Assembly: GCA_049322255.1 (NCBI GenBank)
Contig: JBMORE010000013.1
Span: 1-36,513 of the forward strand
From: Myxococcota bacterium
GTDB taxonomy: Bacteria; Myxococcota; Myxococcia; Myxococcales; Myxococcaceae
Reading direction: 5' to 3'
Length of the DNA stretch: 36,513 nt
The notes beneath the pieces were generated by a model, which worked only from the letters and a program-made list of their open reading frames with translations, made no database searches and was not told the origin of the DNA. The position numbers were made by a program, and so were the translations under genes. Shown here piece by piece: positions 15,449-34,203 of the stretch. The stretch's first letter is position 1, and each line of letters starts with the position of its first letter.

Positions 15449-15564
15449 AGTGGCTCCGCGGGGCTTTGTCGCCTCGTTTGTCTGAAGGAGCGAGGTGGGT
15501 TAGAGAGCCCGCCCGTGGCCGAAGCGCAGGGACCGGACTGGTTGGCCGCGAGGGGTTCAAACCG

Positions 15565-16587
15565 ATGAAAACGTTGCGTTGGATGATGTCGGGTTTCGTG
15601 CTCGGGCTGCTCATCGCCGTCGCGCCCGCGTGTGGCTCGTCCACGGGCAACTGCAACGCGGCCAACTGTCAGAACGGGTGCTGCGACAGCACCGGGCGCT
15701 GTCAGCTGGGGAGCATCAACTCCGCCTGCGGCAGCAGCGGGCGCGCCTGCACCGTGTGCCAGGCCAACCAGGTGTGCCAGTTGGGGTTCTGTACCTTCAC
15801 TGGTGGTGGCGGAGGCGGAGGGGGTGGAGGGGGTGGCGGGAACGACGGCGGGGTGTGCAACGCGGCATCCTGTGCGGCCGGATGCTGCTCCGCGGGTCAG
15901 TGCGTGCCCGAGAGCAACCTCACCTGCGGCATCAACGGCGTCGCGTGCGTGACGTGCGCTGGTACGGAGGTCTGCCAGAACGGCCAGTGCACTGGAAGCT
16001 CTGGCAACTGCAGCGCGAGCACCTGCACCGGCTGCTGCAGCGGCAACACCTGCATCCAGATCGGCCTGCAGAACAACTCCCAGTGCGGCAGCGGAGGCAA
16101 CGCATGCACGGCGTGCTCAGGCACTCTGAGCTGCAGCAACGGTTCCTGCCAGACGCCGACCGCGTGCCAGACGCTCAATTTCACTCCGGTGGCCCAGGCC
16201 GGAGCATACGACTCCCAAACCGATCTCACTTTCGGGCAGCTTCTAACGACCGCTACCCCTCCAGGGGACCTCCTCGCTCTCAGTGCTTTGCACAACGGCG
16301 GGACGCTTCAGCTTCCGGCCACCCGAAACCTGACGGGAAGCACGTTCGCCACCTGCCAGGTCTGCGTTCTTTACGGGCAGGGTTGTGATTCCAATGGGTG
16401 CACGAGGATTTTCCTGGGGACGTCGGGGTCGGCGACCGTCACCACCGCCAGCCGCTCCACGCCGGGCCAAATCTCCGGCTCCGTCAGCAACGTTCGCTTC
16501 GAGGAGTGGGACGCCCCGAGCGACACGAAAGTGAGCGGAGGACAGTGCTTCACGCTGGCCTCCCAGAGCTTCAACATCAGCTTCTGA
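15565..16587 (+). CDS. Cys-rich repeat secreted/lipoprotein (myxobacterial type)
   Basis: Leader MKTLRW...IAVAPAC; three repeats of C-x3-C-x2/3-GCC...CG..G.AC..C; poly-Gly linker; GAGGGG RBS. Confidence 0.8.
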   Translation: MKTLRWMMSGFVLGLLIAVAPACGSSTGNCNAANCQNGCCDSTGRCQLGSINSACGSSGRACTVCQANQVCQLGFCTFTGGGGGGGGGGGGGNDGGVCNAASCAAGCCSAGQCVPESNLTCGINGVACVTCAGTEVCQNGQCTGSSGNCSASTCTGCCSGNTCIQIGLQNNSQCGSGGNACTACSGTLSCSNGSCQTPTACQTLNFTPVAQAGAYDSQTDLTFGQLLTTATPPGDLLALSALHNGGTLQLPATRNLTGSTFATCQVCVLYGQGCDSNGCTRIFLGTSGSATVTTASRSTPGQISGSVSNVRFEEWDAPSDTKVSGGQCFTLASQSFNISF

Positions 16588-16611
16588 GGCGAGACCCCAG
16601 GGTCCCCGGCT

Positions 16612-17379
16612 TCAGTCGAGGAAGAATCGGTACGTATAGGTGATGGTGGTCGACACCTTCTCGCCGGCCTTGATCGCCGGGCTGAACTTGAACTGGCGAA
16701 TCGCCTTCAGCGCCGCCTCGTTCAGCCCGTAGCCGGGGCCGTTGAGCACCTTGGCGTCCACCACCCTCCCCTCGAGGTCGATGGTCAAAGAGAGAATCAC
16801 CGCTCCCTCGATGCCTGCGCGCTGCGCCTCCTCGGGGTAGGGCACCTTCACCTCGTGCACCACCGAGGGCACCGAGTCGATCTGGTGCACCGGTGCGTAC
16901 TTGGGCGCCGAATACGCTTTCACCTCTTCGGGCGCGACGGCCGTCTTCTCCGTCTTCCCGTACACGGTGTTGCCCACCGGGGCTGCGAAGGAACCGCCGG
17001 TGGTGGTGGAGGACATCGAAATGCCCACCACCAAGGGCACGGGCTTGGGAGGCTCCTCCGCCGCAGCCTCGTTGGGGGGCGGGGGCGCGTCTTCGGGGGG
17101 CGGAGTCTCTTCCACTTCCGCCACTCGTACCGGCGGCGGTTTCACCACTTTTTTGGGCGGCTCCGCTTCTTTGGGAGGAGGCTCCGGCTCGGGCGGCTTG
17201 GGAGGCTCGACTTCCACCACCACCAGCTCCACCGGCTTGCTGAGCTCTCCCGCGCGCATCGGCTTGGCGCTGAGCAAGGCGAGGATGATTCCATGCGCCA
17301 CCATCGACGCCACCAGCGCGCCCGAAAGAAAAGCCGCGCTTCGATCTCGGCCGGGCGGTCTCAACGTGGCCTCGTTCAT
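16612..17379 (-). CDS. tonB: Energy transducer TonB
   Basis: N-terminal TM with SxxxH (SMVAH), Pro/Glu-rich linker, C-terminal YPEEA...GIEG...LNEAALKAIRQFKFSPA. Confidence 0.88.
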   Translation of the reverse strand: MNEATLRPPGRDRSAAFLSGALVASMVAHGIILALLSAKPMRAGELSKPVELVVVEVEPPKPPEPEPPPKEAEPPKKVVKPPPVRVAEVEETPPPEDAPPPPNEAAAEEPPKPVPLVVGISMSSTTTGGSFAAPVGNTVYGKTEKTAVAPEEVKAYSAPKYAPVHQIDSVPSVVHEVKVPYPEEAQRAGIEGAVILSLTIDLEGRVVDAKVLNGPGYGLNEAALKAIRQFKFSPAIKAGEKVSTTITYTYRFFLD

Positions 17380-17420
17380 GCTCGATAGGCTCGGACCCCG
17401 GCCACCATACCGCGGTTCCT

Positions 17421-17852
17421 TCAGGGCGTCGCCGGAGGGGCGGGGGCGGCGTCCTTCTGAATGTTGAGCGCGAACTTGGCGATGCCTTCCCCCTTCACCA
17501 CGTCGATGAGGTGCATCACCCGGCCGTAGTTCAACGCCTGATCCGCGCTGATCACCGCGCGCGTCTGGGGGTCCTTCTGGAGCGACTCGGAAACCTTACG
17601 GCGCAGCTCCTCCTCTTCCACCGGGGCGCCGTCGAAATAAATCTTCGCATCCTTGTCGATCACCACGTTCACCAGCCCTTGCACCGTCTCGCCGCCGTGG
17701 GCAGCGCGCGGCAGGTCGACCTCCACCGTCTCACGCACGATGAAGCTCGCGGTGACCATGAAGATGATGAGCAGCACCAGCACGATGTCCACCAGCGGGG
17801 TGACGTTGATGCCGGTGATTTCCTCGTCGGAGTCCTGCGTGCCGGCGGCCAT
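17421..17852 (-). CDS. exbD: Biopolymer transport protein ExbD/TolR
   Basis: INVTPLVDIVLVLLIIFMVTA and ISADQALNYGRVMHLID; TGATG coupling to exbB. Confidence 0.9.
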   Translation of the reverse strand: MAAGTQDSDEEITGINVTPLVDIVLVLLIIFMVTASFIVRETVEVDLPRAAHGGETVQGLVNVVIDKDAKIYFDGAPVEEEELRRKVSESLQKDPQTRAVISADQALNYGRVMHLIDVVKGEGIAKFALNIQKDAAPAPPATP

Positions 17853-18535
17853 CAGCGCACCTCGCGGATCGCCGCCGGTGCCCCCCGGGGCCCGTTCTCG
17901 GCCCGCAGGTGTCCGACCAGCGCGTGTCCCAGCGCGGTGGTGCGCGCGGTGATGGTCTTCAAGGAGCGGGTGAAGAGGTTGTAGGCGATGACCGCGGGAA
18001 TGGCGACCGCCAGCCCCACCGCAGTGGCCACCAGCGCCTCGGAAATGCCGGCCATCACCGTCTGTTGCACGGCTGCTCCCTTGGCGTTCACCTGCCCCAG
18101 GTCGTGGAAGGCTTTGATGATGCCCAAGACCGTTCCGAACAGGCCGATGAAAGGAGCGTTGCTCCCCAGCGTGCCCAGGTACGACAGGAAACGCTCGTAC
18201 CGCGGCCGCTCGCGTGCGACGGTGGCGGCGATGACTTGCTCCACGGTGTCGGCGCCCTGTGCGACCGAGGCGATGCCATCGCGCAGCACTGCCGCTTCCA
18301 TACCCTCGCGGTCGGCCACTGATTGCCTCACCGCCTCGAGCTCGCCCTTGGCCAGCCGTACCGCCAATTCCTCGGGGTTGGGCAGCCGGCGCAGCGAGAA
18401 ATAGATGAACCTTTCGAGCATCACCGCGATCGAGCCCACGGAGAGCACCACGAGCAGCCACAGCACCCATTCGGCGCTGGAGAGCGTCACCGCGAGCAGC
18501 TTCGTGGTCAGCCAGCCTTGGTGCTCATTGGTCAT
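17852..18535 (-). CDS. exbB: MotA/TolQ/ExbB proton channel
   Basis: LGTLGSNAPFIGLFGTVLGII and GISEALVATAVGLAVAIPAVIAYN. Confidence 0.92.
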   Translation of the reverse strand: MTNEHQGWLTTKLLAVTLSSAEWVLWLLVVLSVGSIAVMLERFIYFSLRRLPNPEELAVRLAKGELEAVRQSVADREGMEAAVLRDGIASVAQGADTVEQVIAATVARERPRYERFLSYLGTLGSNAPFIGLFGTVLGIIKAFHDLGQVNAKGAAVQQTVMAGISEALVATAVGLAVAIPAVIAYNLFTRSLKTITARTTALGHALVGHLRAENGPRGAPAAIREVR

Positions 18536-18629: not shown

Positions 18630-19946
18630 ATGGCTGCGGGTGAGGAACGCCGCAAGGACGCGCTGATTCTGGGGGGGGTTCGCCGTATCCAACGGCGCCT
18701 CAACGGGGATCTCTACCTGCGCCAGCTGGTGGCTCCCGTCTGGGTCGCGGCCACCGTGCTCGCCCTGTGGCGCTTCTTCCTTCGCAATCATCTGGCGGTG
18801 GCAACGGTGTTGACGCTCGTGTCCACGGCGTTCATCTGGTGGTGGCGGGTGCGCAAGGGACGGGTGCCCCTGTCGCACGCCGCCATCCTCGCCGACCGGT
18901 TGGCCGACGCGGGCGGTTTGCTCCTCACCCGGCTCGAGCTGCCCGTGGGGCAGTGGGAGCTCGGGCTCAACGAACGGGTGCGTGCCTTGCAGCCGCCGGC
19001 GCCAAAGGGTGCGCGGAGCGTGGCAGCAGTGGGTATGGCGCTCCTCTTCTTCGGCGTGGCGATGCTCGTTCCTCTTCCCACCCCCGGGGTGTTGCGGGTC
19101 AACGCGGCGGCGGCGAGCAAGGTGGCGCAGGTGGAGGCTCAGGCCGAAGCGCTCGCCGAAGAAGTCGTGCTCGATGTCTCGGTGGAGAGTGAGCTCGCCC
19201 GGCTGCGCGAGGAGCTCGCCGACCACCCGTTCGACGCCGCTGATTGGGAAGCGGCCGATGGGCTGGAGAGCTCGCTGCAAAAGCAGGCCGCCGAAGCCGC
19301 GGCAAGACTCTCGCGTGCCGCGGAGGCCGCGCGCTCGTTGGAGGAGGCGCTGGGGCAAGCCAACGGCGGCGAAGCGGCTTCGCAGGCGCGAGAAGAGCTC
19401 GAACGAGCGCTGCAAGCATTAGAGCGAGAGTCCGGTGAAACAAGCGGGGCTTCGACTCCGCTCAGCCCGGGCGGAGTCGAGGGCCAGCGCGCTCAAACAT
19501 CGCAGCTTCGGCAAGCGCTGGAGAAGCGGCAGCAAAGCCTCGCCCGCGCGTTCGGTCAGGGCCAGGCGCGGCAGATGGGCCACGCCCAGTCCGGTGAGCA
19601 GCGGCCAGGCGGACAGTCAGGAGGACAGGACGACGGGCATGCCAGTCGCTTGGGTCAAAAAGGAGGCCCCTCGCGCGGAGGCGGTGAGGCCGAGCTGGTC
19701 TTCGGGGCAGAGGCGCGGATGGATCCGGATCGACTGAAGTTCGAGCCGCTCCCCAAAGGTCAAGGCGGGGAAGGAGAGGAGCTGTGGGGCCTGCGCGCGG
19801 CGGATCCCAAGCCGGGTTCGGGGCCCTCGCAGCCGTCGGCCTCCGGGACGAGCGCAGAAGGAGAGCAGGGGGTGGGCCACCAAGACGGGCCGCGCCTGCC
19901 GCGGAACCGGGAGCTCATCAGGCGGTACTTCGATTCACCGAAGTAG
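18630..19946 (+). CDS. Membrane-anchored coiled-coil protein, first gene of the MoxR/vWA operon
   Basis: Three hydrophobic segments, Ala/Glu/Gln helical region, Gly/Gln-rich tail, C-terminal LPRNRELIRRYF. Confidence 0.7.
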   Translation: MAAGEERRKDALILGGVRRIQRRLNGDLYLRQLVAPVWVAATVLALWRFFLRNHLAVATVLTLVSTAFIWWWRVRKGRVPLSHAAILADRLADAGGLLLTRLELPVGQWELGLNERVRALQPPAPKGARSVAAVGMALLFFGVAMLVPLPTPGVLRVNAAAASKVAQVEAQAEALAEEVVLDVSVESELARLREELADHPFDAADWEAADGLESSLQKQAAEAAARLSRAAEAARSLEEALGQANGGEAASQAREELERALQALERESGETSGASTPLSPGGVEGQRAQTSQLRQALEKRQQSLARAFGQGQARQMGHAQSGEQRPGGQSGGQDDGHASRLGQKGGPSRGGGEAELVFGAEARMDPDRLKFEPLPKGQGGEGEELWGLRAADPKPGSGPSQPSASGTSAEGEQGVGHQDGPRLPRNRELIRRYFDSPK

Positions 19947-19956
19947 GAGGCGTGGG

Positions 19957-20949
19957 ATGTCCGAGCTTTTGCAGCCCCCCGAAGTGTCGTCGGCCCAAGA
20001 GACCATCGCCATGCTCAAGGGGGGGCTGAACCAAGTCCTCCTCGACCAGACGCAGGTGGTCGACCGGGTGGTCACCGCGGTGCTCGCGCGCGGCCATCTG
20101 CTCCTCGAGGGTTTGCCGGGGCTGGGGAAGACCGAGCTGTGCAAGGGGCTGGCGCGCCTGCTCGAGCTGCCCTTCAAGCGGGTGCAGTTCACCCCCGACC
20201 TCCTTCCGGGGGACATCACCGGCACCTACGTTCTCGAGGGCGACGCGCGACAGCTCGTCTTCCGCCCCGGGCCCCTCTTCGCCAGCGTGGTGCTTGCCGA
20301 CGAAATCAACCGTTCTTCGCCCAAGACGCAGTCGGCGCTCCTGGAGGCGATGCAGGAGCATTCGGTCACCGTGCTCGGGCACACCCACGCGCTCCCCGAG
20401 CCTTTCTTCGTCCTCGCCACCCAGAACCCCATCGAGCTCGAGGGCACCTATCCGTTGCCCGAGGCGCAGCTCGACCGCTTCCTGTTTCGGGTGCAGGTGC
20501 CTCCGGTGGGAGCCAAGACCTTGGCCACCTTGCTCACCCAGCGCGTGCGCGGGGAGCCGCCGAAGCTTCAGCCGCTCCTCGATGCACAGGCATTGGGCAA
20601 GCTGTTTGCCCTGGTCGACCGGGTGCACCTACCGCAGCCGGTGGCCGAGTTCATCGGTCGGTTGGTGGAGGCGAGCGATCCACGCAGGGAGGGCGCTCCC
20701 GAGGTGGTGCGGCGCTTCGTGCGCTACGGCGCTTCCCCCCGTGCCGCGCTGGCGATGGCGGCCAGTGCGCGCGCGGCGGCCTTGGCCAAGGGCAAGCCCA
20801 ACGTCGGCTTCGACGAGGTGCTGGAGGTGGCTCCCGCAGTGCTCAACCACCGGCTGGTGCTCTCCTACGAGGCGTCGCTGGAGAAGGTGGCCGCCGCCCA
20901 GGTGGTGGAGGAGCTGGTCCGTGCGGTGCCCGAGATCCCCCATGGATGA
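19957..20949 (+). CDS. MoxR-family AAA+ ATPase
   Basis: HLLLEGLPGLGKT (Walker A), RVQFTPDLLPGDITG, LADEINR, ATQNPIELEGTYPLPEAQLDRF, GASPRA; AGGAGG RBS. Confidence 0.96.
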   Translation: MSELLQPPEVSSAQETIAMLKGGLNQVLLDQTQVVDRVVTAVLARGHLLLEGLPGLGKTELCKGLARLLELPFKRVQFTPDLLPGDITGTYVLEGDARQLVFRPGPLFASVVLADEINRSSPKTQSALLEAMQEHSVTVLGHTHALPEPFFVLATQNPIELEGTYPLPEAQLDRFLFRVQVPPVGAKTLATLLTQRVRGEPPKLQPLLDAQALGKLFALVDRVHLPQPVAEFIGRLVEASDPRREGAPEVVRRFVRYGASPRAALAMAASARAAALAKGKPNVGFDEVLEVAPAVLNHRLVLSYEASLEKVAAAQVVEELVRAVPEIPHG

Positions 20950-20967
20950 GTCGAGCGCCGCCCCCGC

Positions 20968-21003
20968 CTCCCTCTCCCTCTGGGAGAGGGTCGGGGTGAG
21001 GGG
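20968..21003 (+). repeat. BoxC-like palindromic repeat, single arm (site a)
   Basis: CTCCCTCTCCC-TCT-GGGAGAGGG-TCGGGGTGAGGG. Confidence 0.9.
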
Positions 21004-22881
21004 CGTGGTCTTGACGTTGGCGCTTTTGCCCGGCACCGCCGTCGCTGGCCAGCTCGATTACACCTTCGCCTCCGTGGACATCGTCTCCGTCGGCGGAGGA
21101 ACGCTCCAGGTCAGCACCGAGAACGGGGCCCTCTCCTCCGACTCAGGGTACGTGCCCTTACGCGTCTTTCTCACCAACTCGGCGCGCGCGGCGCAGACGG
21201 TGCACCTTTCCTTCGACTCCAACATGCCCGGAGCGGCGCCCATCACCCGCACCGTGGAGGTCGACGGGGGCGAGCGGCGGTTCGTGCACTTGTACATCCC
21301 CGCGGAGCTCACCTACGGGGCGCTCAGTGCGCGCGCTCCCGGCATCACCGAGGGAGGGCGCCAGAGCGTGCACTTCAGCAAGGTGACCAACCCTCAGCAA
21401 GCAGTCCTCTCCTTGGGGACGGCGGAGGAATTCGAAACGCTGGTGGAAGAGGGGCCCGTCTACAGCGACCACAAGGTGATGGTGCAGACGGTGCCCGCGC
21501 CGGATGCGCCCCCTGAGCTCGCCGGCTACGTGGGGTACGACGCGGTGGTGCTGCCCGCCACTNNNNNNNNNNNNNNNNNNNNNNNNNNNNNNNNNNNNNN
21601 NNNNNNNNNNNNNNNNNNNNNNNNNNNNNNNNNNNNNNNNNNNNNNNNNNNNNNNNNNNNNNAACGCTGGTGGAAGAGGGGCCCGTCTACAGCGACCACA
21701 AGGTGATGGTGCAGACGGTGCCCGCGCCGGATGCGCCCCCTGAGCTCGCCGGCTACGTGGGGTACGACGCGGTGGTGCTGCCCGCCACTGCCCTCGACGA
21801 GTTGCCCGAGTCGGTCCGCCGCGCGCTCGAGGCCTACGCTGCTACTGGAGGAACGCTGGTGCTGGGCCGGCCCGGCCGCGCGGTGCGAACCCATCTTCCG
21901 CTCTTGGGCGATGTGGCTGCGGGTGGTGAGCCGTACGGTTTCGGCTTCGTCGAGCTCTGTCAGGGCGAGGGCACCTGTCTGCGGAGCCCTCCGCCCTCTC
22001 GTTCCGTCAAGGTTTTGCCCAAGGGTCCTCTGCAGTTGTGGCGGCGGCGGAGCAGTCCCATCCCGCAAGATGCGCTGCTCCCGCAGGCCACCGCCCCGGT
22101 GGGACGTTTTCTCGCCATCATCATCCTCTTCACCTTGGCCATCGGGCCGGGGAGCCTGGTGCTGGCGCGGCGCAAAGGGCCGCCGGTGCTTCTTCTCACC
22201 ATCCCCCTCACCGCCGCCGTCACCTCGTTGGCCATCGTCGGCTACGCACTCTTCAAAGAGGGCTTCGCGGCGCACGCCTCCACCCGCGGAGTCACCTTGC
22301 TCGATACGAAGAACCGGCGCGCCATCACCCTCGGGGTGGCGGCCTTCTACGCCAACCTCTCTCCTGGCGAGGCGCGCTTCTCCTCCACCACCGCCCTCCT
22401 CGTACCCGACAGTCGTGAGTCTGAGGTGCGCTTCGCCGCCGTCGATTGGACCCAAGGTGCCCGCTTCGGCGCCGACTTCGTGCCCTCGCGTACCTACCGC
22501 GAGTGGGGAATTCTCTCCGTCGAGCCCTCCCGCGCCCGCTTGCTGGTGCAAGCCGACGGCGGCGAGGCGCCCCTGGTGAAGAACGCGCTCGGCTCCCGCA
22601 TCCGCCGGGCGAAGTTTCGTTGGAACGATGAGCTGTGGGGGGTGGAGGACCTCGCCGAGGGGGCCGAGGGCCGCGCGGTGCCACGAGGAACACAGGAGGC
22701 CTCCTTCTGGGAGCTCGCAGGCGTCCACCACCGGCTCACCCCGTCCGGGGTCGTCTTGGAGGAGGGGCTGAAAGAGGGCGAGTTTTTGGCCCACGTCGAC
22801 GGGCCCAGCCTTCTGCCTTTGGGCGGAGTGCGCATCCAGCCCCATGACGCCGAGCACCTGATTCGTGGGGAGGTGGAGTGA
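20996..22881 (+). CDS. Exported/membrane protein of the MoxR operon (about 550-570 aa once the gap is collapsed)
   Basis: ORFs on both sides of the gap join in frame when the 127-bp duplicate and Ns are removed; signal-like MRGVVLTLALLPGTAVA from GTG 20996 (alternative ATG 20942); two central TM helices. Confidence 0.7.
21436..21789. other. Assembly gap (100 N, 21563-21662) flanked by an identical 127-bp overlap
   Basis: 21436-21562 is identical to 21663-21789. Confidence 0.95.
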
Positions 22882-23867
22882 TGGCGTTGCTCGAAGTGAA
22901 GGGCCTGACGCGCGAGTTCGGCTCCTTACGCGCGGTGGACGAGGTGAGCTTCACTCTGGAAGAGGGCGTCATCTTGGGCTTCATCGGGCCCAACGGCGCG
23001 GGCAAGAGCACCACCATGCGCATCTTGGCCACGCTCGACGTGCCTACCCAAGGGCAGGTGCTCGTCGGTGGCAAGAGCGCGGTGGAGCGGCCCGACCAGG
23101 TGCGCCCCCTCATCGGGTACATGCCCGACCGCTACGGCACCTACGACGACATGACGGTGTACGAGTTCCTCGACTTCTTCGCTCGCGCTTATCGGCTTCA
23201 TGGCCGGGAGCGAAAGGAGCGGGTAGCTCAGGTGATGGAGTTCACCCGGCTCACCGAGTTGGGCCCAAAGCTCACCAGCGCGCTCTCCAAAGGCATGAAG
23301 CAGCGGGTGGCGCTGGGGCGAACGCTCCTCCACGACCCCAAGCTGCTCATCCTCGACGAGCCGGCGGACGGGCTCGACCCGCGGGCACGCATCGAGCTGC
23401 GCGAGCTGCTCAAGGCGCTCGCCGCCCAGGGCAAGGCGGTGCTCATCTCCAGCCACATCCTCACCGAGCTGTCGGAAATCTGCGACGCCTGCGCCATCAT
23501 CGAGCAGGGGAAGCTGCTCGCCCTCGGGCCGGTGGAGGAGATTTTGGCCCAAAGCCGCGGCGCGGCGGCCTTCAGCGACTTGGTCTTACGGCTTGCGGGA
23601 GCGAACGTGGGGGAGGCGCTCGAGAAGGCAGAGCGGCTCCTCCTCGAGCAGCCGCGCGTGGCCAAGGTGAGCATCGAGGGCAGCGCGGTGCGGGTGCGGG
23701 TGGAGCTGCCTTCCGGTGCTTCGCCGAGCCCGGGGTGGGTGGACGAGGTGGCCGCGGCGCTACTCCGGGCGGTGGTGCAGGCCGAGCTGCCGGTGTGCGC
23801 TCTCTCCACCCAGGAGCTCGACCTCGAGGATGCGTTCATGACGGTGACTCAGGGGAGGGTGCGGTGA
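22881..23867 (+). CDS. ABC transporter ATP-binding protein
   Basis: GPNGAGKST, LSKGMKQR signature, LLILDEP, ISSHIL; GGAGG RBS, TGATG overlap. Confidence 0.95.
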   Translation: MALLEVKGLTREFGSLRAVDEVSFTLEEGVILGFIGPNGAGKSTTMRILATLDVPTQGQVLVGGKSAVERPDQVRPLIGYMPDRYGTYDDMTVYEFLDFFARAYRLHGRERKERVAQVMEFTRLTELGPKLTSALSKGMKQRVALGRTLLHDPKLLILDEPADGLDPRARIELRELLKALAAQGKAVLISSHILTELSEICDACAIIEQGKLLALGPVEEILAQSRGAAAFSDLVLRLAGANVGEALEKAERLLLEQPRVAKVSIEGSAVRVRVELPSGASPSPGWVDEVAAALLRAVVQAELPVCALSTQELDLEDAFMTVTQGRVR

Positions 23868-25360
23868 GCGGGGAATTGGCGCCGGAGCTGACGCCCCTCA
23901 CCCCCACCCTCTCCCAGGGGGAGAGGGAGTTGGGTGACCGCATCAATCCTATTGTGATCAAGGAGGTGCGCCAGGGCCTACGCACCAAAGTTTTTTGGAT
24001 TTGCTTTTCGCTGATGCTCCTGGCGTGCCTGGTCATCTCGCTCATCGCCTTCGCCGTCACCCGCGACGCGGGCACCCAGACGGTGGGGCAGGAGTTCTTC
24101 TTCTCCTACTTCGTCTGCCTGGGGGTGGTGCACTTCTTCGTCATCCCCTACAGCGCGCACCGCTCGCTGGCCAAGGAGCGCGAGGAGGAGACCTGGGTCT
24201 TGCTCACCCTCACCGGCTTGGGCCCGCGGCGCATCCTGCGCGGCAAGCTCGTCTCCTACCTCGTGCAGGCCGCGCTCTACGGCTCGGCGGCGGGGCCGTT
24301 CCTCGTCTTCAGCTATTACTTGAACGGCATCGACCTGCCCACCATCCTCGCGGTGCTCCTCTTGGGAGCGGCCTACCTCGTCTTCCTCACCGCGGCTTCG
24401 GTGAGCGCCGCCACCTTGGCCGAGCACAAAGTCATGCGGGCGCTCGCCCACTTCTTGCTCCTGGGAGTGTTGCTCGGCGGCACCTCGATGGGGCTGGGCA
24501 TCGCCTTCGCGCTCACCGAGGAGGGGCACAGCATCGTCAACGACAAGGACTTTCAGCTCGCCATCGGCATCGGGCTGTGGGCGATGCTCAGCTACGGTCT
24601 GCTCCTCTTCGAGGCGGCGGCGGCGCGGCTGTCGTTGCCCACCGAGAGCTACGCCAAGGGGCCGCGGCTGGCGTTTCTCTTCCAACTCTTGGCCACCGCC
24701 GGTCTCCTCTTCTACCTCTGGCTGCGCGAGGGCCAGGAGCCAGGGGTGGCCGTCGCCGGGCAGATTTTCTTCTGCCTGCACTTGACGGTGGTGGGGTTGT
24801 TTCTCACCAGCGACGTGGACGGACAGGCCCCGTGCCACCGCGACGGCACCGGGCCCTTCTCGCTTTTGCGCCCGGGGGCACTGCGCGGCTTTCGGCTGGT
24901 GATGGTGGCGCTCCTTGCCAGCTCGCTCTTCTTCCTCGTGCTCTTTCTTTTCTCAGAGGAGGCATCGTGGATGACGAGCGACCTGAGCCTCCAGGTGCTC
25001 CTCGCCGCCGGCGCCTACGTGGCGCTCTACCTGTCGATGCCCCTCGTCCTCACCCGCCTGTCCACCTCACCTCGCTGGCGCCAGCCTTTGGTGACCCGGG
25101 TGGTGTTCCTGGCCGTCCTCTTGGTGGGTGCCGGTGTGCCTCCCCTCGTCGGCGCCATCGCCTTCGGTAAGCCGGAGGAGCCGAGCTTGAACCTCTTCAA
25201 TCCGGTGGTGGGGCTCGTCAACCTCGTCGACCGACGGCAGGACGACTTCGGAGCGCTCCTCCTCTTGTGGGCGGTGGCGGCAGCGGCGGTCATCGCGGCG
25301 GACCGCCTGCTCGCCGCACGAGATATTGCTCCCTCTCCCTCTGGGAGAGGGCAAGGGTGA
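23864..25360 (+). CDS. ABC-2-type transporter permease
   Basis: NPIVIKEVRQGLR, KEREEETWVLLTLTGL..RRILRGKL; about 12 hydrophobic helices; GTGA overlap with the ATPase. Confidence 0.85.
   Translation: MSGELAPELTPLTPTLSQGERELGDRINPIVIKEVRQGLRTKVFWICFSLMLLACLVISLIAFAVTRDAGTQTVGQEFFFSYFVCLGVVHFFVIPYSAHRSLAKEREEETWVLLTLTGLGPRRILRGKLVSYLVQAALYGSAAGPFLVFSYYLNGIDLPTILAVLLLGAAYLVFLTAASVSAATLAEHKVMRALAHFLLLGVLLGGTSMGLGIAFALTEEGHSIVNDKDFQLAIGIGLWAMLSYGLLLFEAAAARLSLPTESYAKGPRLAFLFQLLATAGLLFYLWLREGQEPGVAVAGQIFFCLHLTVVGLFLTSDVDGQAPCHRDGTGPFSLLRPGALRGFRLVMVALLASSLFFLVLFLFSEEASWMTSDLSLQVLLAAGAYVALYLSMPLVLTRLSTSPRWRQPLVTRVVFLAVLLVGAGVPPLVGAIAFGKPEEPSLNLFNPVVGLVNLVDRRQDDFGALLLLWAVAAAAVIAADRLLAARDIAPSPSGRGQG
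23885..23929 (-). repeat. BoxC-like palindromic repeat, single inverted arm inside the permease 5' end (site b)
   Basis: GAGCTGACG-CCCCTCACCCCCA-CCCTCTCCC-AGG-GGGAGAGGGAG. Confidence 0.9.
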
Positions 25361-25421
25361 GGGCAGTATGCCCGACGAGCTGACACCCCTCACCCCGACC
25401 CTCTCCCAAAGGGAGAGGGAG
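25329..25421. repeat. Inverted doublet of BoxC-like repeats spanning the permease/DUF58 junction (site c)
   Basis: Arms 25329-25363 and 25386-25421, 22-nt spacer. Confidence 0.92.
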
Positions 25422-26252
25422 GCGGTGGAACGTGCTGCCCAGGGCAAGACGCTGCGGCTGCCGCGGGTACCGCACCGAGGTCGAGTGGGGGAAGTGCGGG
25501 CGGCGTCGGTGGGCAGCTCGATGGAGATGCACGACTTTCGCGCCTACCAGCCGGGAGACGACGTGCGGCATCTCGACTGGAACGCGGTGGCACGCACCGG
25601 TGAGCTCGTGGTGCGCGTGCGCCAGGAAGAGGTGTCTCCCCGGGTGGAGGTGCTCCTCGACGCCTCGCGCTCGATGGCGGTGTCCCCCGTGAAGGCCGAG
25701 CGTTCCACTGAGGTAGCGATGCTTCTGTGCAAGGTCGCCGCGCGACAGGGATTGGAGCCGACCGTACTGGTGACGTCGCGCTCGCCCCGGCGAGCCACTG
25801 GAGGCGGTTGCGAGGCCGTACTGCGAGCCCTCGAGCACGACGCCGCCGATCATCTCCTCGAGGCGCTCCGCCGCTCTCCGCCCCTTCGCCCCTGTGGTCT
25901 TCGCCTGGTGGTGAGTGACTTTCTCTTCGAGGCACCGCTCGACCAACTTGCCCAGCGCCTCTCGGCGCAAGCCTCCGCGCTCGCACTGATTCAGGTTCTC
26001 GACCAAGAAGACACCCGCCCCACCGGAGGCGAAGGCGCGCGCCTGGTGGACGCCGAAACAGGCGAGGTGCTCGAGCGCATTCTGGCGAGCTCGGTGGTGG
26101 AGAGCTACCAGCGGCGGCTGGCGGAGCACCAGCAACTGTTGCGCACAGCCGCCTTTCGGGTGCGGGCCACGCTGGTGACTGCTCCGGCGCAGCCGAGCAT
26201 CGACGTCCTCGCCCGCGGACCGCTCGCTCCGCTGTGGGAGGGCGACCGGTGA
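25368..26252 (+). CDS. DUF58-domain protein (vWA-like, MoxR partner)
   Basis: GSSMEMHDFRAYQPGDDVRHLDWNAVAR, LLDASRSM, VVSDFL. Confidence 0.92.
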   Translation: MPDELTPLTPTLSQREREAVERAAQGKTLRLPRVPHRGRVGEVRAASVGSSMEMHDFRAYQPGDDVRHLDWNAVARTGELVVRVRQEEVSPRVEVLLDASRSMAVSPVKAERSTEVAMLLCKVAARQGLEPTVLVTSRSPRRATGGGCEAVLRALEHDAADHLLEALRRSPPLRPCGLRLVVSDFLFEAPLDQLAQRLSAQASALALIQVLDQEDTRPTGGEGARLVDAETGEVLERILASSVVESYQRRLAEHQQLLRTAAFRVRATLVTAPAQPSIDVLARGPLAPLWEGDR

Positions 26253-28042
26253 GCTTCGGTTTTCCCTGGGGGCTGCTCGCATTGGGGGCGCTGCTCCCGC
26301 TGGCTGCGGCCTATTTTCTTCGCCGCCGCCAAAAACCGCGCACGGTGAGCGCGCTCTTCCTTTGGCGCACCCCCCATCAGCGCGCCCAGGCCGGCCCGCG
26401 GCTGGAACGCTTCACCCGCGAGCTTTCCTTCCTTCTCGAGGCGTTGGCCATCATCGCCGGAGCGCTCTTCCTCGCCGACGTCCGTTGGGGTGGAGACCTC
26501 GAGCAGCGGCATCTGGTGGTGGTGGTCGACGGAAGTCTCTCGCTCGCCGCCCATCCTCCTGCGGGAAAGCCCGTTGTCGAGCGGGTGCGGGAGGCGGTCG
26601 CGGCGGCCATCGCGCGCGAGGGAGCGAGCCTGGTCACCGTGGTGGAGAGCGGGCCCTATCCCAAAGTGCTCGCCGGACCGCAGGCGCGCGCCTCGGAGGC
26701 GCTCGCGGGCTTGGAGAACTGGCGCCCGCTGGGCCCTTCGCACGATGTGATGCCTGCGGTGCTCTTGGGGCGGGAGCTCGCCGGACCGGGAAAGCGGTTG
26801 TGGCTTTTCACCGACGGGCCGCTTCCGGAAGGAACGCCGCTGCCTGCGGAAGTGCAGCTCGTCGGCGTCGGCGAGGCGGTGGACAACGTGGCGCTGGTGT
26901 CGGCGCAGCGCAAAGACGAGGGCGCGCGGGTGGTGGTGACGGTGCGGGTGGCAAGCTATGCCGCCACACCGCGCAAGTTGCCGGTTCGCTTTTCCGGGGA
27001 GAACGCCGAGCGGGAAGAGTGGGTGGAGCTGCCCGCGGGTGGCAACGCGGTGGTGCGCGCCTCGTTGGCCAGCGCAGGACCCATCGAGGTGCGCCTGCCC
27101 GACGACGCCCTGGTGGAGGACGGCCGGGTGACGCTCCTGATGTCTTCGCTGGCGGTGGTGCCAGTGCGGCTGATGGAGGGGCTCTCTTCGGCGGAGCGTT
27201 CGGCGCTGCAGCGGTTTTTCGACGTGGCGGAGGGCGTCGCTTCGGCGAAGCCGGAGGAGAAGCAGGCGGGGACGCTTTCCTTCGGGCCGCGCGGCGTTGG
27301 CGCCTCGGTGCAGCTGGGTGCGCGTGGCGCCCTCGAGTCCTACGTTGGCCCCTTCTTCACGCAAAAAGGCCATCCGCTGCTCGACGATGTCTCTTTCGGG
27401 GGAGTGGTGTGGACGGCGGGAGAGAGTCCCTCCGGGCTGCCGCTGGTGACGGCCGGTGAGGCGGTGCTTCTCTCCGAGGAGACGGACGGCACGGTGCACC
27501 TGAACCTCGAGCTGTCGCGCTCCAACGTGCAGCGCACCGCGGCCTGGCCGGTGCTCTTGAGCAACCTCATGCGCCGCGCTCGCTTGTCGGTGCCCGGGCT
27601 GCCCAAGCGAAACTTTCTCCTCGGCGAGGAGGTGCCGGTGGTGACCGAGCCGGGTGTGCGCTACCTGCTCGACGGTCCGGGGGGAGAGCGGCCGGTGCTC
27701 GGGGTGGGCGCGGTGCGGCTTCCTCCCTTGTCGCCCCCAGGACGGTACCGGCTGTTGCGCGAAGGGAAGGAGGTCGACGCGCTGGAGGTGCTCACCCTCG
27801 ATGCCCGCGAGTCGGATTTGCGAGGCCGCGGGAAGGTGGAGCGCGCCGCGAGCATCAAGGGGGAATTGACCACCCGGGCGCTGGCCAGGCAGCGGTCACT
27901 GTGGCCACTGCTGCTCCTGCTTGCCTTGCTGATTGTTGACTTCGTCCTCCCTCTCCCTTTGGGAGAGGGCCGGGGTGAGGGGTCCCGAGCTCGCCGAGCT
28001 GCCGCCCCTCACCCTTACCCTCTCCCAGGGGGAGAGAGATGA
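26249..28042 (+). CDS. BatA-like N-terminal domain plus vWA protein
   Basis: FGFPWGLLAL..P...YFLRRRQKPRTVSALFLW (BatA N-terminus), VVVDGSLS MIDAS-like, LFTDG; C-terminal TM; GTGA overlap. Confidence 0.85.
   Translation: MSFGFPWGLLALGALLPLAAAYFLRRRQKPRTVSALFLWRTPHQRAQAGPRLERFTRELSFLLEALAIIAGALFLADVRWGGDLEQRHLVVVVDGSLSLAAHPPAGKPVVERVREAVAAAIAREGASLVTVVESGPYPKVLAGPQARASEALAGLENWRPLGPSHDVMPAVLLGRELAGPGKRLWLFTDGPLPEGTPLPAEVQLVGVGEAVDNVALVSAQRKDEGARVVVTVRVASYAATPRKLPVRFSGENAEREEWVELPAGGNAVVRASLASAGPIEVRLPDDALVEDGRVTLLMSSLAVVPVRLMEGLSSAERSALQRFFDVAEGVASAKPEEKQAGTLSFGPRGVGASVQLGARGALESYVGPFFTQKGHPLLDDVSFGGVVWTAGESPSGLPLVTAGEAVLLSEETDGTVHLNLELSRSNVQRTAAWPVLLSNLMRRARLSVPGLPKRNFLLGEEVPVVTEPGVRYLLDGPGGERPVLGVGAVRLPPLSPPGRYRLLREGKEVDALEVLTLDARESDLRGRGKVERAASIKGELTTRALARQRSLWPLLLLLALLIVDFVLPLPLGEGRGEGSRARRAAAPHPYPLPGGER
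27947..28038. repeat. Inverted doublet of BoxC-like repeats at the BatA-vWA 3' end (site d)
   Basis: Arms 27947-27982 and 28005-28038, 22-nt spacer. Confidence 0.92.
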
Positions 28043-30723
28043 CGCTGGTCCTGCCGCAAGCGCTGCTCCTCCTCGTGCCGCTGTGGCTGTGGGTGTGGAA
28101 GCGCGGGCGGGTGAACGGCCCGGCGTTCGTCTTGCGCTTCGCCACCGTCGGTGTGCTGGTGCTCGCGTTGGCGCAGCCGCACCTCTCTTGGCGCAGCGCG
28201 GGAAGCGACTTGATGGTGGTGGTCGACCGCTCGCGCTCGATGCCGCCCGGCTCGGAAGGGAAGGCCGAAGAGCTCATTCGGCTTCTCGAAGCGCAGCGAC
28301 GCCCGGGAGACAGGTTGGGGGTGGTGGCCTTCGGCCGCGAGGCACGGGTGGAGGCGGCGCTCTCGGAGCAGACCTCCTTCGGTGGCTTTTCCCGTGCGGT
28401 GGATGCCGAAGCCTCCGACCTCGCCTCGGCGCTCGACGCTGCGGGAGAGCTGGTTCCGTCGACGCGGGCGGCGCGGGTGCTGGTCATTTCCGACGGTCGT
28501 GCCACCGGGCTCGATGTGCGCGGAGCGGCCAGACGGCTGGCGGCGCGGGGCATCGCCGTCGACTACCGCTGGCTCGGGCGGGAAGAGAGCAGGCTCGACT
28601 TGGCGGTGGTCGCCCTCGACGGGCCCTCCGCCGTTTCGGTGAAGGAGCCCTTTCTGCTTTCCGCCACTGTCCACGCCAGCGCGGCGGCGAAGGGAACGGT
28701 GTTGCTCGAGCGCAATGGCCAACCACTGGTGAAGGGCCCGTACGACTTCCGTGCAGGACAGAACGTGCTCACCTTCCGTGACTGGGTGGAAGAGGAGGGG
28801 CTGGTCAGCTACCGCCTCACGGTGGAGGCCGCGGGCGACACGGTGGTGGAGAACGATGTCGGCCGCGCGGTGTTGCGCGTCGAAGGTCCGCCGCGGGTGC
28901 TCTTGCTCACCCACGCGCCGGAGGGCACGTTGGCGAAGACGCTCGCCGAAAGCGGCCTGCGCGTGGAGGTGCGAGCGCCCTTCCCCCTGACGATGGACGC
29001 TCTCGACGGAGTGGGGACGGTGGTGTTGGAGAACGTCGAGGCCGGCAGCCTGTCTGAGGCCGGGCTGCACGTGCTCGCGCAGTATGTGAAGGAGGCAGGG
29101 GGCGGCCTGGTGATGACCGGCGGGAAAATGAGCTTCGGCGAGGGCGGCTTTCGCAAGTCACCGGTGGAGGAGCTGCTCCCCGTTTCGCTGGAGGTGCGCG
29201 AGGAGCAGCGGCGCGCGGCGGTGGCGATGGCGATCATCATGGACTGCTCGTGCTCGATGGGCGCCACGGTGTCCGACGGCCGCACGAAGATGGAGCTCGC
29301 CGCCGAAGGCGTCGTCGGCGCGCTGGAGCTGCTCAATGACCACGACGAGGCCTCGGTGCACATGGTGGACACCCAGGCGCACGAAATCTTCGGCCTTGCT
29401 CCGGTGAGCGAGGGGCTGCCTTTGGGGAAGGTGGCGCGCGGCTTCTCCGGCGGCGGAGGCATTTACGTGGGGGTGGGGCTCGCCGCTGGCCGCGACGAGA
29501 TTCTCCAGAGCCGGAAGCCCACCCGCCATCTCTTGCTCTTCTCCGACGCCGCCGACTCCGAGGAGCCCGGCGACTACCTGCGCACCCTCTCCGAGCTGCA
29601 AAGGGAGAAAGTCACCGTGTCGGTCATCGGGTTGGGGCGGCGAACCGACCCGGACGGGGCGCTCTTGGAAGAAATTGCTCTCCGCGGCGGTGGGCGGGTG
29701 TACTTCGCCGAGGACGCCACCAGCCTGCCGCGCATCTTCAGCCAGGAGACCATCGCGGTGGCCCGGGCGACCTTCGTGGACACGCAGACGGCGGCGAAGC
29801 TGGGCCCCGACCTGGCGCTTTTGGGGCAGTCCTTCGGCACCCGTTTCTCCTCGGTGGGTGGCTACAACCTCTCCTATTTGCGCCCGCGGGCATCGGTCGG
29901 TCTTCGCACCAGCGACGAGAACGAGGCGCCGCTGCTCGCGCTGTGGCCCAAGGGCGCGGGCAAAGTCGTGGCATACACCGGTGAGGTGGACGGCGAATTC
30001 ACAGGGCCGATGCGCCACTTCGGTGGCTACCGCGCGCTGCTCGAACAGATGGTGCGCTGGACGATGCCGCCTCACGCCGACTCGATCGATGTGGTGCCTC
30101 GGGCAATCCGGTGGGGGAACGACCTGCACGTCACCCTCGACTTCGACCCCAAGAGCGCTCCGCCGGAGGGCGCAGCGACGCTGGTTCTCCTCACCGCTGA
30201 TGCGCGTACCGCCCCGGTGGAGCTGCCGCTGCGCTGGGAGGACGAAGACCGAATGGGCGTGCACTACTCGCTGCCCGGCAGCGGAACGTTTCACCCGGTG
30301 GTGAAGCTCGAAGGGCGGGTCTTGCGCGCTCCGCCGGTGACGCTGCCCTACGCTCCGGAGTTCGAGCCGAGCAGCGTGGCGGATGGAAGACAGCTGCTCG
30401 CCGCGATTGCAAAGGCGAGCGGCGGGGTGGAGCGGCTGGCGATGACCCACCTCTTCGCCGACGCCGTAGAGTCGGTGGCCTTCATACCCCTGGCGCCGCT
30501 CCTGGTGGCCGGCGCGCTGGCGCTGCTCCTTGCCGAAGTCATCACCCGACGCTTTTTCCAAAGCACCCCTCTCCCCTTGGGAGAGGGCAAGGGTGAGGGG
30601 CGCGTTCATCAAATGGGAGCTGACACCCCTCACCCCGCCCCTCTCCCAGAGGGAGAGGAAGTCGAGCCACGTTCGCCGTTTGAAGTCGCCCGCGAGCGCG
30701 CCAAGCAGCGCCTGCGCCGCTAA
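28039..30723 (+). CDS. Double-vWA membrane protein with a glutamine-amidotransferase-like region
   Basis: VVVDRSRSM...ISDG and IMDCSCSM...FSDA; YVKEAGGGLVMTGGKMSFGEGG..SPVEELLPV; N- and C-terminal TMs. Confidence 0.88.
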   Translation: MTLVLPQALLLLVPLWLWVWKRGRVNGPAFVLRFATVGVLVLALAQPHLSWRSAGSDLMVVVDRSRSMPPGSEGKAEELIRLLEAQRRPGDRLGVVAFGREARVEAALSEQTSFGGFSRAVDAEASDLASALDAAGELVPSTRAARVLVISDGRATGLDVRGAARRLAARGIAVDYRWLGREESRLDLAVVALDGPSAVSVKEPFLLSATVHASAAAKGTVLLERNGQPLVKGPYDFRAGQNVLTFRDWVEEEGLVSYRLTVEAAGDTVVENDVGRAVLRVEGPPRVLLLTHAPEGTLAKTLAESGLRVEVRAPFPLTMDALDGVGTVVLENVEAGSLSEAGLHVLAQYVKEAGGGLVMTGGKMSFGEGGFRKSPVEELLPVSLEVREEQRRAAVAMAIIMDCSCSMGATVSDGRTKMELAAEGVVGALELLNDHDEASVHMVDTQAHEIFGLAPVSEGLPLGKVARGFSGGGGIYVGVGLAAGRDEILQSRKPTRHLLLFSDAADSEEPGDYLRTLSELQREKVTVSVIGLGRRTDPDGALLEEIALRGGGRVYFAEDATSLPRIFSQETIAVARATFVDTQTAAKLGPDLALLGQSFGTRFSSVGGYNLSYLRPRASVGLRTSDENEAPLLALWPKGAGKVVAYTGEVDGEFTGPMRHFGGYRALLEQMVRWTMPPHADSIDVVPRAIRWGNDLHVTLDFDPKSAPPEGAATLVLLTADARTAPVELPLRWEDEDRMGVHYSLPGSGTFHPVVKLEGRVLRAPPVTLPYAPEFEPSSVADGRQLLAAIAKASGGVERLAMTHLFADAVESVAFIPLAPLLVAGALALLLAEVITRRFFQSTPLPLGEGKGEGRVHQMGADTPHPAPLPEGEEVEPRSPFEVARERAKQRLRR
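30567..30658. repeat. Inverted doublet of BoxC-like repeats, in frame in the vWA protein tail (site e)
   Basis: Arms 30567-30600 and 30626-30658, 25-nt spacer. Confidence 0.92.
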
Positions 30724-32319: not shown

Positions 32320-34203
32320 ATGCAAACCCGAAGGTTGTTTTCGCTCGTGGTCGGCCTCGGGCTGGCCAGCGGCTGCGGTCAGTCGCCTAAGACGTTCGAA
32401 GCCGGTGGAATGGCGCCCCAAATCTCGGTGGTGGGCGTGGGTGGAGGTGGCGGTGGCGGCGGGGGTGCCAACGTCCCGGTGATCGACCTTCGCGTCGACG
32501 TGAACCGCAACGGGACGGTGGACCTCGACGACCCCACCGAAGACGCTGACGAGACGGTTTGGTCGGCGACCCACGGAGCCATCTTTCTCGCCAACCTCGA
32601 CGACGATCAGGATCGCTGCCCCACGGCCACGACCAGTGGCCAGGCGCTCACCGACGCTCAGTACGCCGGTTGCCACGACGCTTCCGATTCGGTGGTCAAC
32701 GGGCCCGACGACTTGCTCGACCTCGCCCGGATGTGGGTCAAGCCTTGGCCGTTGGCTCCGGATTCGGCGGTGGGCTCGCTCGAGCTGTCCTCCCCGGCGG
32801 ACCAGCACGTAAGGCTCTTCAAGAGCTCTGGGGGCCAGTTCACCCTCTTCAACCCGCTCACCGACAACTTCACCGCCGCCGAGCTGCGCGCGGGCGTCGA
32901 GCTGGCCATCGAGGGCAAAGACATCGTTCGCGACCCGGCGGTTTGGAACGGTTACCTCGACGTGACGCTCATCGTGCAGGCCCCGGGGAACCCTCCGGTG
33001 GCAGGAACGGACAGCGTGCGCCTGCGGGTTGCTCCGGTCATCACGTTCCACCACAACCTCTCCGCTGAACAGGTGTTCGTCAGCCGCCTCCCCGGCGACC
33101 CCGACTCCACCCGCTTCACCCAGGCGCTCTCCGACGCGCTCTCCCAGTCGATGGTGAGCCGGCCGCTGGTGCAATTCTCCGAAGACGACCCGTGGACCGA
33201 GGACTTCTTCGAGCCGGCCTACATGTCGATGCCGGCCGCCGGCGGCGCGCAGCACGTGGTGCGGGTCAACTTCCGCTCTGCCAACATCTACGGCAACCCC
33301 ACGGGCTCGCGGCCGCTGCGGCCGGCGGGCCGGGTCGTGTTCTTCATGCGCAGCAAGGACGTGGCGGCGATTCAGGAGTTCGACCCCGCATCTGACCCGA
33401 ACATGGACTCGCTCAACTCGATGGGGAACACCGAGACGGTGCCGCCCTACACGCTGGGCAGCGCCTCCTTCCCGCTGGGCCGAATCTTGCGTGGCAGCCA
33501 CCCGCAGTTCTACCCGGACCGGCGCTTCTCCAAGATGCTCGAGGCGCAGAGCGTGCAGCCGCCCATCTACATCGACACCTCCTGGCTCTTGGTGGGCCAC
33601 GTGGACGAGACGCTGAGCTTCCTTCCGTTCGACTCTCCCCGCGGGTGGATCGTTCTGGTCAACGACCCCCGGTTGGCGCGGCAGATGCTCGAAGCACAGC
33701 GCAGCGCGGGAAACGGCGATGTGCCGATGTTCGTGGGCAAGCGCTGGCTCGACGACTTCGGCCGGGAGCGCGACGCCCAGGTGACCGTCTCCGGCGTGCT
33801 CGACGACACCGGGGTGATGGCCGAGAGCGCGGCCTCCGCGGCCGAGGTCGACGCGCAGCTGGCCATTCTCCGCCAGGCCACTGGGCTCACCGACGCGGAA
33901 GTCGTCCCCATCCCCTTCCTGCACGAGCAGTACGCCGGCTACTCCCTGGCCTATCAGCCGGGCACGGTGAACGCGCTGGTGCTCAACGACAAGTTCCTGG
34001 TGATGCCCGACCCGTTCGGTCCGGTCATCAACGGGCAAGACATCTTCAAGGAGCAGATTCGCACCGCCTTGGCGCCCTACGGGTACACCGTCCACTTCGT
34101 CGACGACTGGAACCTGTACCACCGCAACATGGGCGAAGTGCACTGCGCCACGAACACCGCGCGGGCCATTCCCGCGGCGAAGTGGTGGGAGGGTGGCCGA
34201 TGA
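32320..34203 (+). CDS. Protein-arginine deiminase (PAD-family) lipoprotein
   Basis: Lipobox LASGC; GAIFLANLDDD, DSVRLRVAP, DPWTED, SMGNTETVPP, FPLGRILRG, WLLVGHVDE, GEVHCATN, collinear with vertebrate PAD motifs. Confidence 0.92.
   Translation: MQTRRLFSLVVGLGLASGCGQSPKTFEAGGMAPQISVVGVGGGGGGGGGANVPVIDLRVDVNRNGTVDLDDPTEDADETVWSATHGAIFLANLDDDQDRCPTATTSGQALTDAQYAGCHDASDSVVNGPDDLLDLARMWVKPWPLAPDSAVGSLELSSPADQHVRLFKSSGGQFTLFNPLTDNFTAAELRAGVELAIEGKDIVRDPAVWNGYLDVTLIVQAPGNPPVAGTDSVRLRVAPVITFHHNLSAEQVFVSRLPGDPDSTRFTQALSDALSQSMVSRPLVQFSEDDPWTEDFFEPAYMSMPAAGGAQHVVRVNFRSANIYGNPTGSRPLRPAGRVVFFMRSKDVAAIQEFDPASDPNMDSLNSMGNTETVPPYTLGSASFPLGRILRGSHPQFYPDRRFSKMLEAQSVQPPIYIDTSWLLVGHVDETLSFLPFDSPRGWIVLVNDPRLARQMLEAQRSAGNGDVPMFVGKRWLDDFGRERDAQVTVSGVLDDTGVMAESAASAAEVDAQLAILRQATGLTDAEVVPIPFLHEQYAGYSLAYQPGTVNALVLNDKFLVMPDPFGPVINGQDIFKEQIRTALAPYGYTVHFVDDWNLYHRNMGEVHCATNTARAIPAAKWWEGGR

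Follow-up and report, generated by a model that had tools for sequence, protein, structure and literature searches.

Why does a single operon in a myxobacterial contig carry eight copies of a short palindromic repeat, every one of them within an open reading frame (ORF)? The contig (JBMORE010000013.1 from assembly GCA_049322255.1; we will call its whole 36,513 nt the window) belongs to a member of the Myxococcaceae with a genome of 4.85 Mb (66% G+C and 99.6% complete). The operon, at 18630-30723, includes genes for a MoxR-type ATPase, an ABC transporter, and DUF58 and vWA proteins. The initial annotation of this sequence proposed a non-autonomous mobile element that targets or survives at translation junctions, and which might have been domesticated as punctuation for the operon. 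We propose instead, with a probability of roughly 0.7, that the copies in the window are passengers of a genome-wide burst of the BoxC repeat, and that they were kept where translation stays unbroken.

The repeat itself is BoxC, also known as PIT or TM-ECO. The initial annotation had noted a resemblance to BoxC, and this is borne out: six of the eight copies in the window, and 170 of the 286 copies in the genome, match the published TM-ECO consensus exactly. The other two copies in the window differ from it by one substitution each. TM-ECO was earlier named BoxC or PIT (Holder et al. 2015, PMC4666352), and the same motif has been described as HPG1/HPG2 (Kaplan et al. 2016, PMC5100583). The consensus has three 9-nt blocks that are separated by loops of 3-6 and 3 nt (PMC4666352). 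Our copies likewise have a C-rich stem, a loop, a G-rich stem, a 3-nt loop, and a second G-rich tract; they also occur both singly and as inverted pairs, with very unequal copy number among relatives. According to the available text of Holder et al. (PMC4666352), the motif is tied to local instability, and its E. coli copies form an intrastrand triplex as single-stranded DNA in vitro (this is not supported in vivo). That text also reports that all 23 copies in E. coli MG1655 are intergenic, that five sites are inverted pairs, and that no link to transposons or other mobile elements was found. In contrast, 116 of the 246 sites in our genome overlap a confident gene call, 34 lie deep within ORFs, and one inverted pair brackets a gene of the DUF559 family. 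No Rfam family reaches its gathering score in the window. BoxC has been known since the 1990s, and we know of no description of its function or of how it spreads.

A weight-matrix scan of the whole contig found the eight copies at five sites that the initial annotation had listed, each displaced by 1-2 nt or less, and agreed that the rest of the contig has none. (The reversed-sequence control gave 0 matches.) The core of each copy is 33 nt, and a doublet spans about 90 nt; the cores of the three doublets in the window are 23, 24, and 27 nt apart. The copies, along with a short ORF that might relay ribosomes across the first of them, are:

20970-21002, + strand: copy 1, at the junction of moxR and the next gene (gene C); lies in an N-terminal extension that begins at ATG 20942, or is spanned by a relay mini-ORF
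20946-20999, + strand: putative relay ORF of 17 codons, whose ATG overlaps the moxR stop; predicted to be translated
23895-23927, - strand: copy 2, within the N-terminal tail of the permease, whose GTG (23864) overlaps the ABC stop
25331-25363, + strand: copy 3, left arm of doublet 1; provides the stop codon of the permease (TGA 25358-25360)
25387-25419, - strand: copy 4, right arm of doublet 1; extends the N terminus of DUF58, which starts at ATG 25368
27949-27981, + strand: copy 5, left arm of doublet 2; extends the BatA/vWA protein at its C terminus
28006-28038, - strand: copy 6, right arm of doublet 2; abuts the ATGA shared with the vWA gene; differs from the TM-ECO consensus by one substitution
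30567-30599, + strand: copy 7, left arm of doublet 3; read in frame as part of the C-terminal linker of the vWA protein, where relatives have a longer Pro/Ala-rich tail
30627-30659, - strand: copy 8, right arm of doublet 3; likewise in frame; differs from the TM-ECO consensus by one substitution

The putative relay ORF ends within copy 1, at a TGA that overlaps GTG 20996, a codon in gene C's reading frame. The ATG of DUF58 is in the spacer of doublet 1. The first site can act as a relay, and the other sites are terminal extensions. Just 3' of copy 1, in the signal-peptide region (21014-21050), eight letters differ in one contig from run X1; this may be a strain variant or an alignment artefact. 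At the other end of the operon, the vWA tail (30567-30723) is shorter than the Pro/Ala-rich linker of 70-90 residues in most relatives. Doublet 3 appears to have replaced much of this linker, while the last conserved residues were retained.

The five peptides and five reading frames that were first reported for the copies are correct. It is also true that five of six frames are open, but this is normal for BoxC. Across the genome, one plus frame contains a stop in 272 of 282 full-length copies, and any other frame does so in at most 24. The repeat can be translated in five frames because its sequence usually carries a stop in only one.

Is the operon special, then? The weight-matrix scan of the genome found 286 copies at 246 sites, comprising 206 single copies and 40 inverted pairs. 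(A stricter scan found 237 copies at 209 sites; in the 28 doublets that it found, the spacers are 14-29 nt.) For the gene context, we used a hexamer-based caller, which predicted 4,356 genes (90% coding) and whose stops are surer than its starts. All of the copies in the window lie within 160 nt of a gene end, as originally observed, but this is a genome-wide rule: it holds for 210 of 246 sites, versus 35% of random positions. Confident gene calls that flank a site with their 3' end number 222: of these, 113 stop 0-15 nt ahead of the site, 38 end at the TGA of the repeat, and 33 continue beyond it. Divergent junctions are under-used (11/207 sites versus a background of 653/4,160, P = 6e-6). 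As for the clustering, nowhere else in the genome are there more than five sites in 9.7 kb, but this density is not beyond chance. In 5,000 random placements, P was 0.22 if sites were placed uniformly and 0.19 if they were placed at gene junctions. (With the stricter set of copies, P was about 0.1.)

We agree with the initial annotation that this is a dispersed and non-autonomous repeat with a patchy distribution among genomes. From the sequence comparisons, we infer that it is mobile and that relay ORFs are translated. One mark of a miniature inverted-repeat transposable element (MITE) is the presence of filled and empty alleles; our comparisons, which covered different genera and the genus g6 but no close strain of the window's species, contain both. 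Among public sequencing runs, one DNA run and no listed RNA run contains the window's sequence, and the DNA run may be its source; three runs showed no clear empty allele, which carries no weight either way. Unlike a MITE, the repeat does not have a fixed target-site duplication, and we rejected this possibility: the flanks of the 40 doublets show no excess of direct repeats (the mean shared word is 4.2, versus 4.1 for shuffled flanks).

Some copies lie well within genes. There are 34 sites that are more than 150 nt inside an ORF, in 32 ORFs, and they use all five open frames. We compared 30 of the 32 proteins to NCBIfam (L268 and L274 were excluded), and 23 of these had a match at 1e-15. The matches include MurD, an FtsI-type penicillin-binding protein, KdsB, MoaA, TsaB, and HypF (with two sites), as well as CysG, PilQ, LolA, AroA, and BioD. 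Relative to solved structures, the repeat peptides fill gaps of about 21 and 8 residues in HypF, 16 in MoaA, and 14 in KdsB, but only 2 residues in a WbpP-like epimerase. Compared with relatives from the same bacterial family, KdsB gained 8-13 residues, TsaB 10-11, MoaA 15-17, and MurD 3-6, and the copies in FtsI and CysG are in a variable linker. Replacement was nearly length-neutral in WbpP (+2), MurD (+3 to +6), and the linker of FtsI. These lengths, together with the lack of duplications at the 40 doublets, suggest that host DNA was replaced, or that insertion was followed by deletion.

In-frame palindromic inserts are known from Rickettsia, whose palindromic elements (RPEs) add a shared peptide to unrelated metabolic genes, according to the accessible part of a paper on them (PMC10969869). 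As with RPEs, BoxC has inserted in frame into intact and unrelated genes. But RPEs are about 150 bp and form other sequence families, versus a core of 33 nt here (we compared their sizes, not alignments), and BoxC can be read in whichever of its frames is open, sometimes in place of native residues. We found no published coding copies of BoxC in a search that left most subscription journals uncovered, and the supplements of PMC4666352 may list some.

An indication that selection has kept the copies comes from the junctions between the genes of the operon. The makeup of the operon is as first annotated:

18630-19946, + strand: opens the operon; matches no Pfam family and is kept in relatives
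19957-20949, + strand: MoxR AAA_3 ATPase
20942-22881, + strand: gene C, no Pfam family, with a signal-peptide-like start; a single gene that is broken by a scaffold gap
22881-23867, + strand: ABC transporter ATPase
23864-25360, + strand: ABC-2 type permease (a weak Pfam match, below the cut-off), with repeat-derived peptides at both ends
25368-26252, + strand: DUF58 protein
26249-28042, + strand: protein with the BatA N-terminal domain and vWA (batA)
28039-30723, + strand: double vWA protein (vWA)

In nearly all relatives, the stops and starts of neighbouring genes overlap and so couple the operon. We walked 355 operon junctions in relatives and found 283 direct overlaps, 50 relays, and 22 with neither, where the count of relays is conditional on finding one. 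The test that we rely on is the length of each expansion modulo 3, because this class is set by the frames of both genes and is independent of the choice of start. We applied it to 158 junctions from 61 genomes (gene C/ABC, DUF58/batA, and batA/vWA, whose starts are well conserved). Of these, 99 show no expansion, 39 have grown by up to 600 nt, and 20 have grown by more. Of the 39 small expansions, 37 are 2 mod 3: in these, a short ORF begins at the old start and ends with a stop that overlaps the start of the next gene. The remaining two contain two relay ORFs in series, and none are 0 mod 3. The 39 expansions have 34 distinct lengths. BoxC is present in 11, and the others consist of different hairpins, tandem duplications, or short fillers. 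With such unrelated inserts, the simplest explanation for the relay frame that we can infer from these sequences is host selection that favours unbroken translation. Two published results, as given in the accessible text of each paper, fit with such selection: a distance of about 20 nt nearly abolishes reinitiation (Huber et al. 2023, PMC10666635), and untranslated RNA invites Rho-dependent polarity (PMC12548453).

Several loci show other kinds of change at these junctions. At DUF58/batA, 65 nt are present twice, as a tandem duplication, in L044 (genome G012), and the end of batA is tandemly duplicated in L050 (G001). In L040 (G015), the sequence of the ABC/permease junction is repeated around an insert of 2.7 kb. 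Four loci (L083, L288, L292, and L293, from G013, G218, G217, and G219) have about 0.9-1.1 kb in the DUF58/batA junction, with what is apparently an antisense gene; on the sense strand, each has an ORF of 300-371 codons that runs from the overlap with the DUF58 stop to the overlap with the batA start. In one clade (L036, L037, L039, L042, L045, and several loci from genus g16), batA and vWA are split by 1.2-5.4 kb, and coupling is lost there.

Might the element itself seek out these junctions? It could actively target stop/start overlaps or stop codons and carry its own coupling signals, in the manner of mycobacterial interspersed repetitive units (MIRUs). MIRUs insert at start codons, and their own ORF is coupled to the next gene by a 4-nt overlap (as described in the accessible text of PMC12548453). 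The likeness is real at site 1 of the window, where a relay can be completed by the GTGA of the repeat, and for 11 junctions from relatives. In both settings, an ORF spans the insert and is coupled to the next gene through 4 overlapping nt, so that little harm is done. Targeting would also account for the many 3' ends just ahead of a site, as well as for inserts at DUF58/batA in genus g6, where RTGA and up to 7 further bases are duplicated. But coupling is not a rule for BoxC. Across the genome, junctions with the repeat are coupled in 46 of 141 cases (14 relays and 32 direct overlaps), versus 732 of 2,039 junctions without it and 68 of 282 in a frameshift null, so we rejected element-driven coupling as a genome-wide effect. 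This lack of preference implies that the relay rule is a property of the operon and not of the element. Furthermore, 34 sites are deep within genes, the 40 doublets show no sign of duplication, and the variable duplications of 4-11 nt are seen only at coupled junctions in g6. Unlike in the MIRU case, unrelated inserts (BoxC, hairpins, tandem duplications, and the antisense gene) all hold the relay frame in one operon, and the 28 of 39 relay-keeping inserts that are not recognisable as BoxC point to selection by the host. We consider targeting to be unlikely, although it is the best of the alternatives. Of the two options in the initial annotation, survival at translation junctions is supported and targeting of coupled junctions is not.

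If the copies were instead domesticated punctuation that sets the ratios of subunits or the processing of the mRNA, then they should recur in related operons. The DUF58 gene has an ortholog in 152 of 208 genomes from the family. Among the first 20 orthologous operons that we fetched, full copies are present in three (G013, G005, and G009), 16 have neither a copy nor a clear remnant, and G020 has a 9-nt remnant at a junction. A branch with 100/100 support separates the window from the three carriers. Of 32 repeat-rich genomes, 20 have no copy in the fetched operon, including 12 of 13 from genus g16. The window's set of sites is not repeated in any relative, the occupied junctions vary between lineages, and unrelated inserts are found in the same junctions. 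The operon looked like a strong cross-genome hotspot in the first 20 loci, but 44 orthologous loci contain just 15 exact copies in the operon, versus 9.3 expected from the genomes' densities, and 0 in the flanks, versus 4.1 expected. These 44 loci are mostly from repeat-rich genomes, related genomes are not independent, copies rather than sites were counted, and some contigs are cut short. (Related-locus scans gave mostly distant DUF58 genes; of 160 loci, we used L083, L084, L088, and L089.) A mild hotspot is possible.

Structure and position do offer something to the punctuation idea. The doublets in the window are computed to form RNA stems of -67 to -82 kcal/mol (z of -6 to -8), with the start of vWA at the foot of one stem and the start of DUF58 in the loop of another, so according to these models the doublets could affect how the mRNA is processed or where translation is initiated. 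The operon also has the densest cluster in the genome, and the DUF58/batA junction is occupied in many g6 genomes. But that density is within chance, none of the 15 terminator-like matches in our scan for intrinsic terminators is a copy of the repeat, and a scan for sigma-70 promoters gave no match, so we rejected both of these roles. Similarly, the accessible text of Holder et al. (2015, PMC4666352), citing Maher and colleagues, describes the E. coli copies as lacking promoter or terminator activity. The genome-wide density is also what the initial annotation had said would count against its proposal. Because most orthologous operons lack the repeat, even in repeat-rich genomes, domesticated punctuation is not supported; the operon-specific claim does not hold, and we think that a role of this kind is quite improbable.

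If the copies are passengers, then what spread them? The initial annotation argued that any mobiliser would have to act in trans, and a candidate is present on another contig (C47): an intact DUF559 gene (17869-18222; 117 amino acids; PF04480, E = 8e-37) between inverted copies of the repeat at 17834-17866 and 18240-18272. It is the only full-length DUF559 gene in the genome, and the protein is related to the endonuclease-like PDB entry 3hrl (E = 2e-23). Across 10 full-length DUF559 loci, seven have an inverted pair, one has variant copies on both sides, one has a copy on one side, and one is cut by the contig end. If repeat-rich is taken to mean at least 20 exact copies, then DUF559 (at E = 1e-20) is found in 33 of the 38 repeat-rich genomes, versus 4 of 170 others in the family; these genomes span seven genera and are not independent. 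E. coli K-12 also has a DUF559 gene, ycjD, and TM-ECO copy 9 is found about 170 nt downstream of it, in the interval between ycjD and fabI. The copies in the operons of G005 and G013 are the same variants that flank those genomes' own DUF559 genes, which fits with independent gain or turnover. In G009 (L057 and L041), DUF559 is flanked by a variant whose second loop contains an additional hairpin, and this variant of the repeat is also found after the vWA stop. Taken together, these comparisons make us lean towards the view that a DUF559 (YcjD-type) nuclease cassette spreads the repeat in trans without a fixed target duplication. We found no literature that links BoxC to DUF559, in a search that was mostly outside of subscription journals.

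This arrangement recalls REPINs, which are inverted doublets of repetitive extragenic palindromes. REPINs have short spacers and are accompanied by a single-copy gene for a RAYT (REP-associated tyrosine transposase) that is flanked by the repeat, and the end of the repeat carries a GTAG or CGTC tag. BoxC shares the inverted doublets (40 in our genome) and a candidate single-copy enzyme gene that is flanked by the repeat. But the flanked gene encodes a DUF559 endonuclease-like protein, many copies are intragenic, and the outer end of the consensus is a C/T run without either tag. The likeness to REPINs noted in the initial annotation is right for the doublet layout but does not extend to the enzyme: we found no match to the Y1/RAYT transposase family (PF01797) in this 99.6% complete genome.

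Spread without any dedicated enzyme, by structure-induced breakage, slippage, or gene conversion, with DUF559 as just a frequent neighbour, would agree with the missing target duplication, the nearly length-neutral copies, the local instability described by Holder et al., and the repeat-rich genomes that lack DUF559, but we consider it very doubtful given that the inverted copies around DUF559 match the genome's dispersed variant, that the two co-occur so strongly, and that an E. coli copy is near ycjD.

We return to our preferred reading, that the copies are passengers of a burst of BoxC. Copies would land widely, probably carried by the DUF559 cassette acting in trans from its own contig, and selection would keep the harmless ones. 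The tolerated places would be just behind stop codons and in loops, linkers, and the ends of proteins. The repeat should be easy to read through, with its five open frames; in the sixth, it has a purine run followed by a GTGA in which a stop and a start overlap. In an operon that is coupled nearly end to end, an insert would be kept only as a terminal extension or as a relay mini-ORF. Every copy in the window would be translated because the coupled operon keeps only those inserts that leave translation unbroken.

Several observations weigh against this reading. The operon has the densest cluster of the genome and three of its five sites are doublets (P = 0.03), and the excess of copies in orthologous operons (P = 0.05) may reflect a mild hotspot. 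Within the window, the permease and DUF58 are separated by a gap of 7 nt and do not overlap. The starts of genes rest on the hexamer-based caller. The 39 small expansions, and the counts for DUF559, come from related genomes. The 20 large inserts are split 10, 7, and 3 over the three length classes, and coupling is not indispensable in the lineages with kilobase inserts. Finally, five repeat-rich genomes (G017, which is 99% complete, and G093, G131, G156, and G007) lack DUF559 at E = 1e-20.

We also noted other features of the window. The gap in gene C (100 Ns at 21563-21662) is flanked on both sides by an identical 127 nt (21436-21789), which is most likely an unmerged overlap and not a true duplication. 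Upstream of the operon, 11549-18535 on the - strand encodes a cluster of TonB C-terminal, ExbD, and TonB_C-fused TonB-dependent receptor proteins, followed by genes with TIG and Kelch domains. Downstream, 32320-34203 (+ strand) encodes a member of the protein-arginine deiminase (PAD) family (PF03068, E = 2e-94).

BoxC in this genome is distinct from BoxC as previously known in its heavy predicted translation, its in-frame copies in housekeeping genes, and its DUF559 cassette; the relay-frame rule is a feature of this operon family. More broadly, we tentatively suggest that BoxC may be a non-autonomous element whose partner, a DUF559 (YcjD) nuclease, cuts and replaces host DNA, so that movement needs neither a transposase nor a fixed target duplication. 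With few stops in its sequence and a stop/start overlap of its own, it may then carry translational coupling to new places and repeatedly supply essential proteins with Pro/Gly loops, and tightly coupled operons would record the selection as a nearly perfect rule on length modulo 3. The genome offers a candidate enzyme for the spread of BoxC, along with many copies that are translated within genes for the cell wall, cofactors, and lipopolysaccharide. And the operon family is a natural test of translational coupling, with diverse inserts at the same junctions and one frame that lets the ribosome pass.

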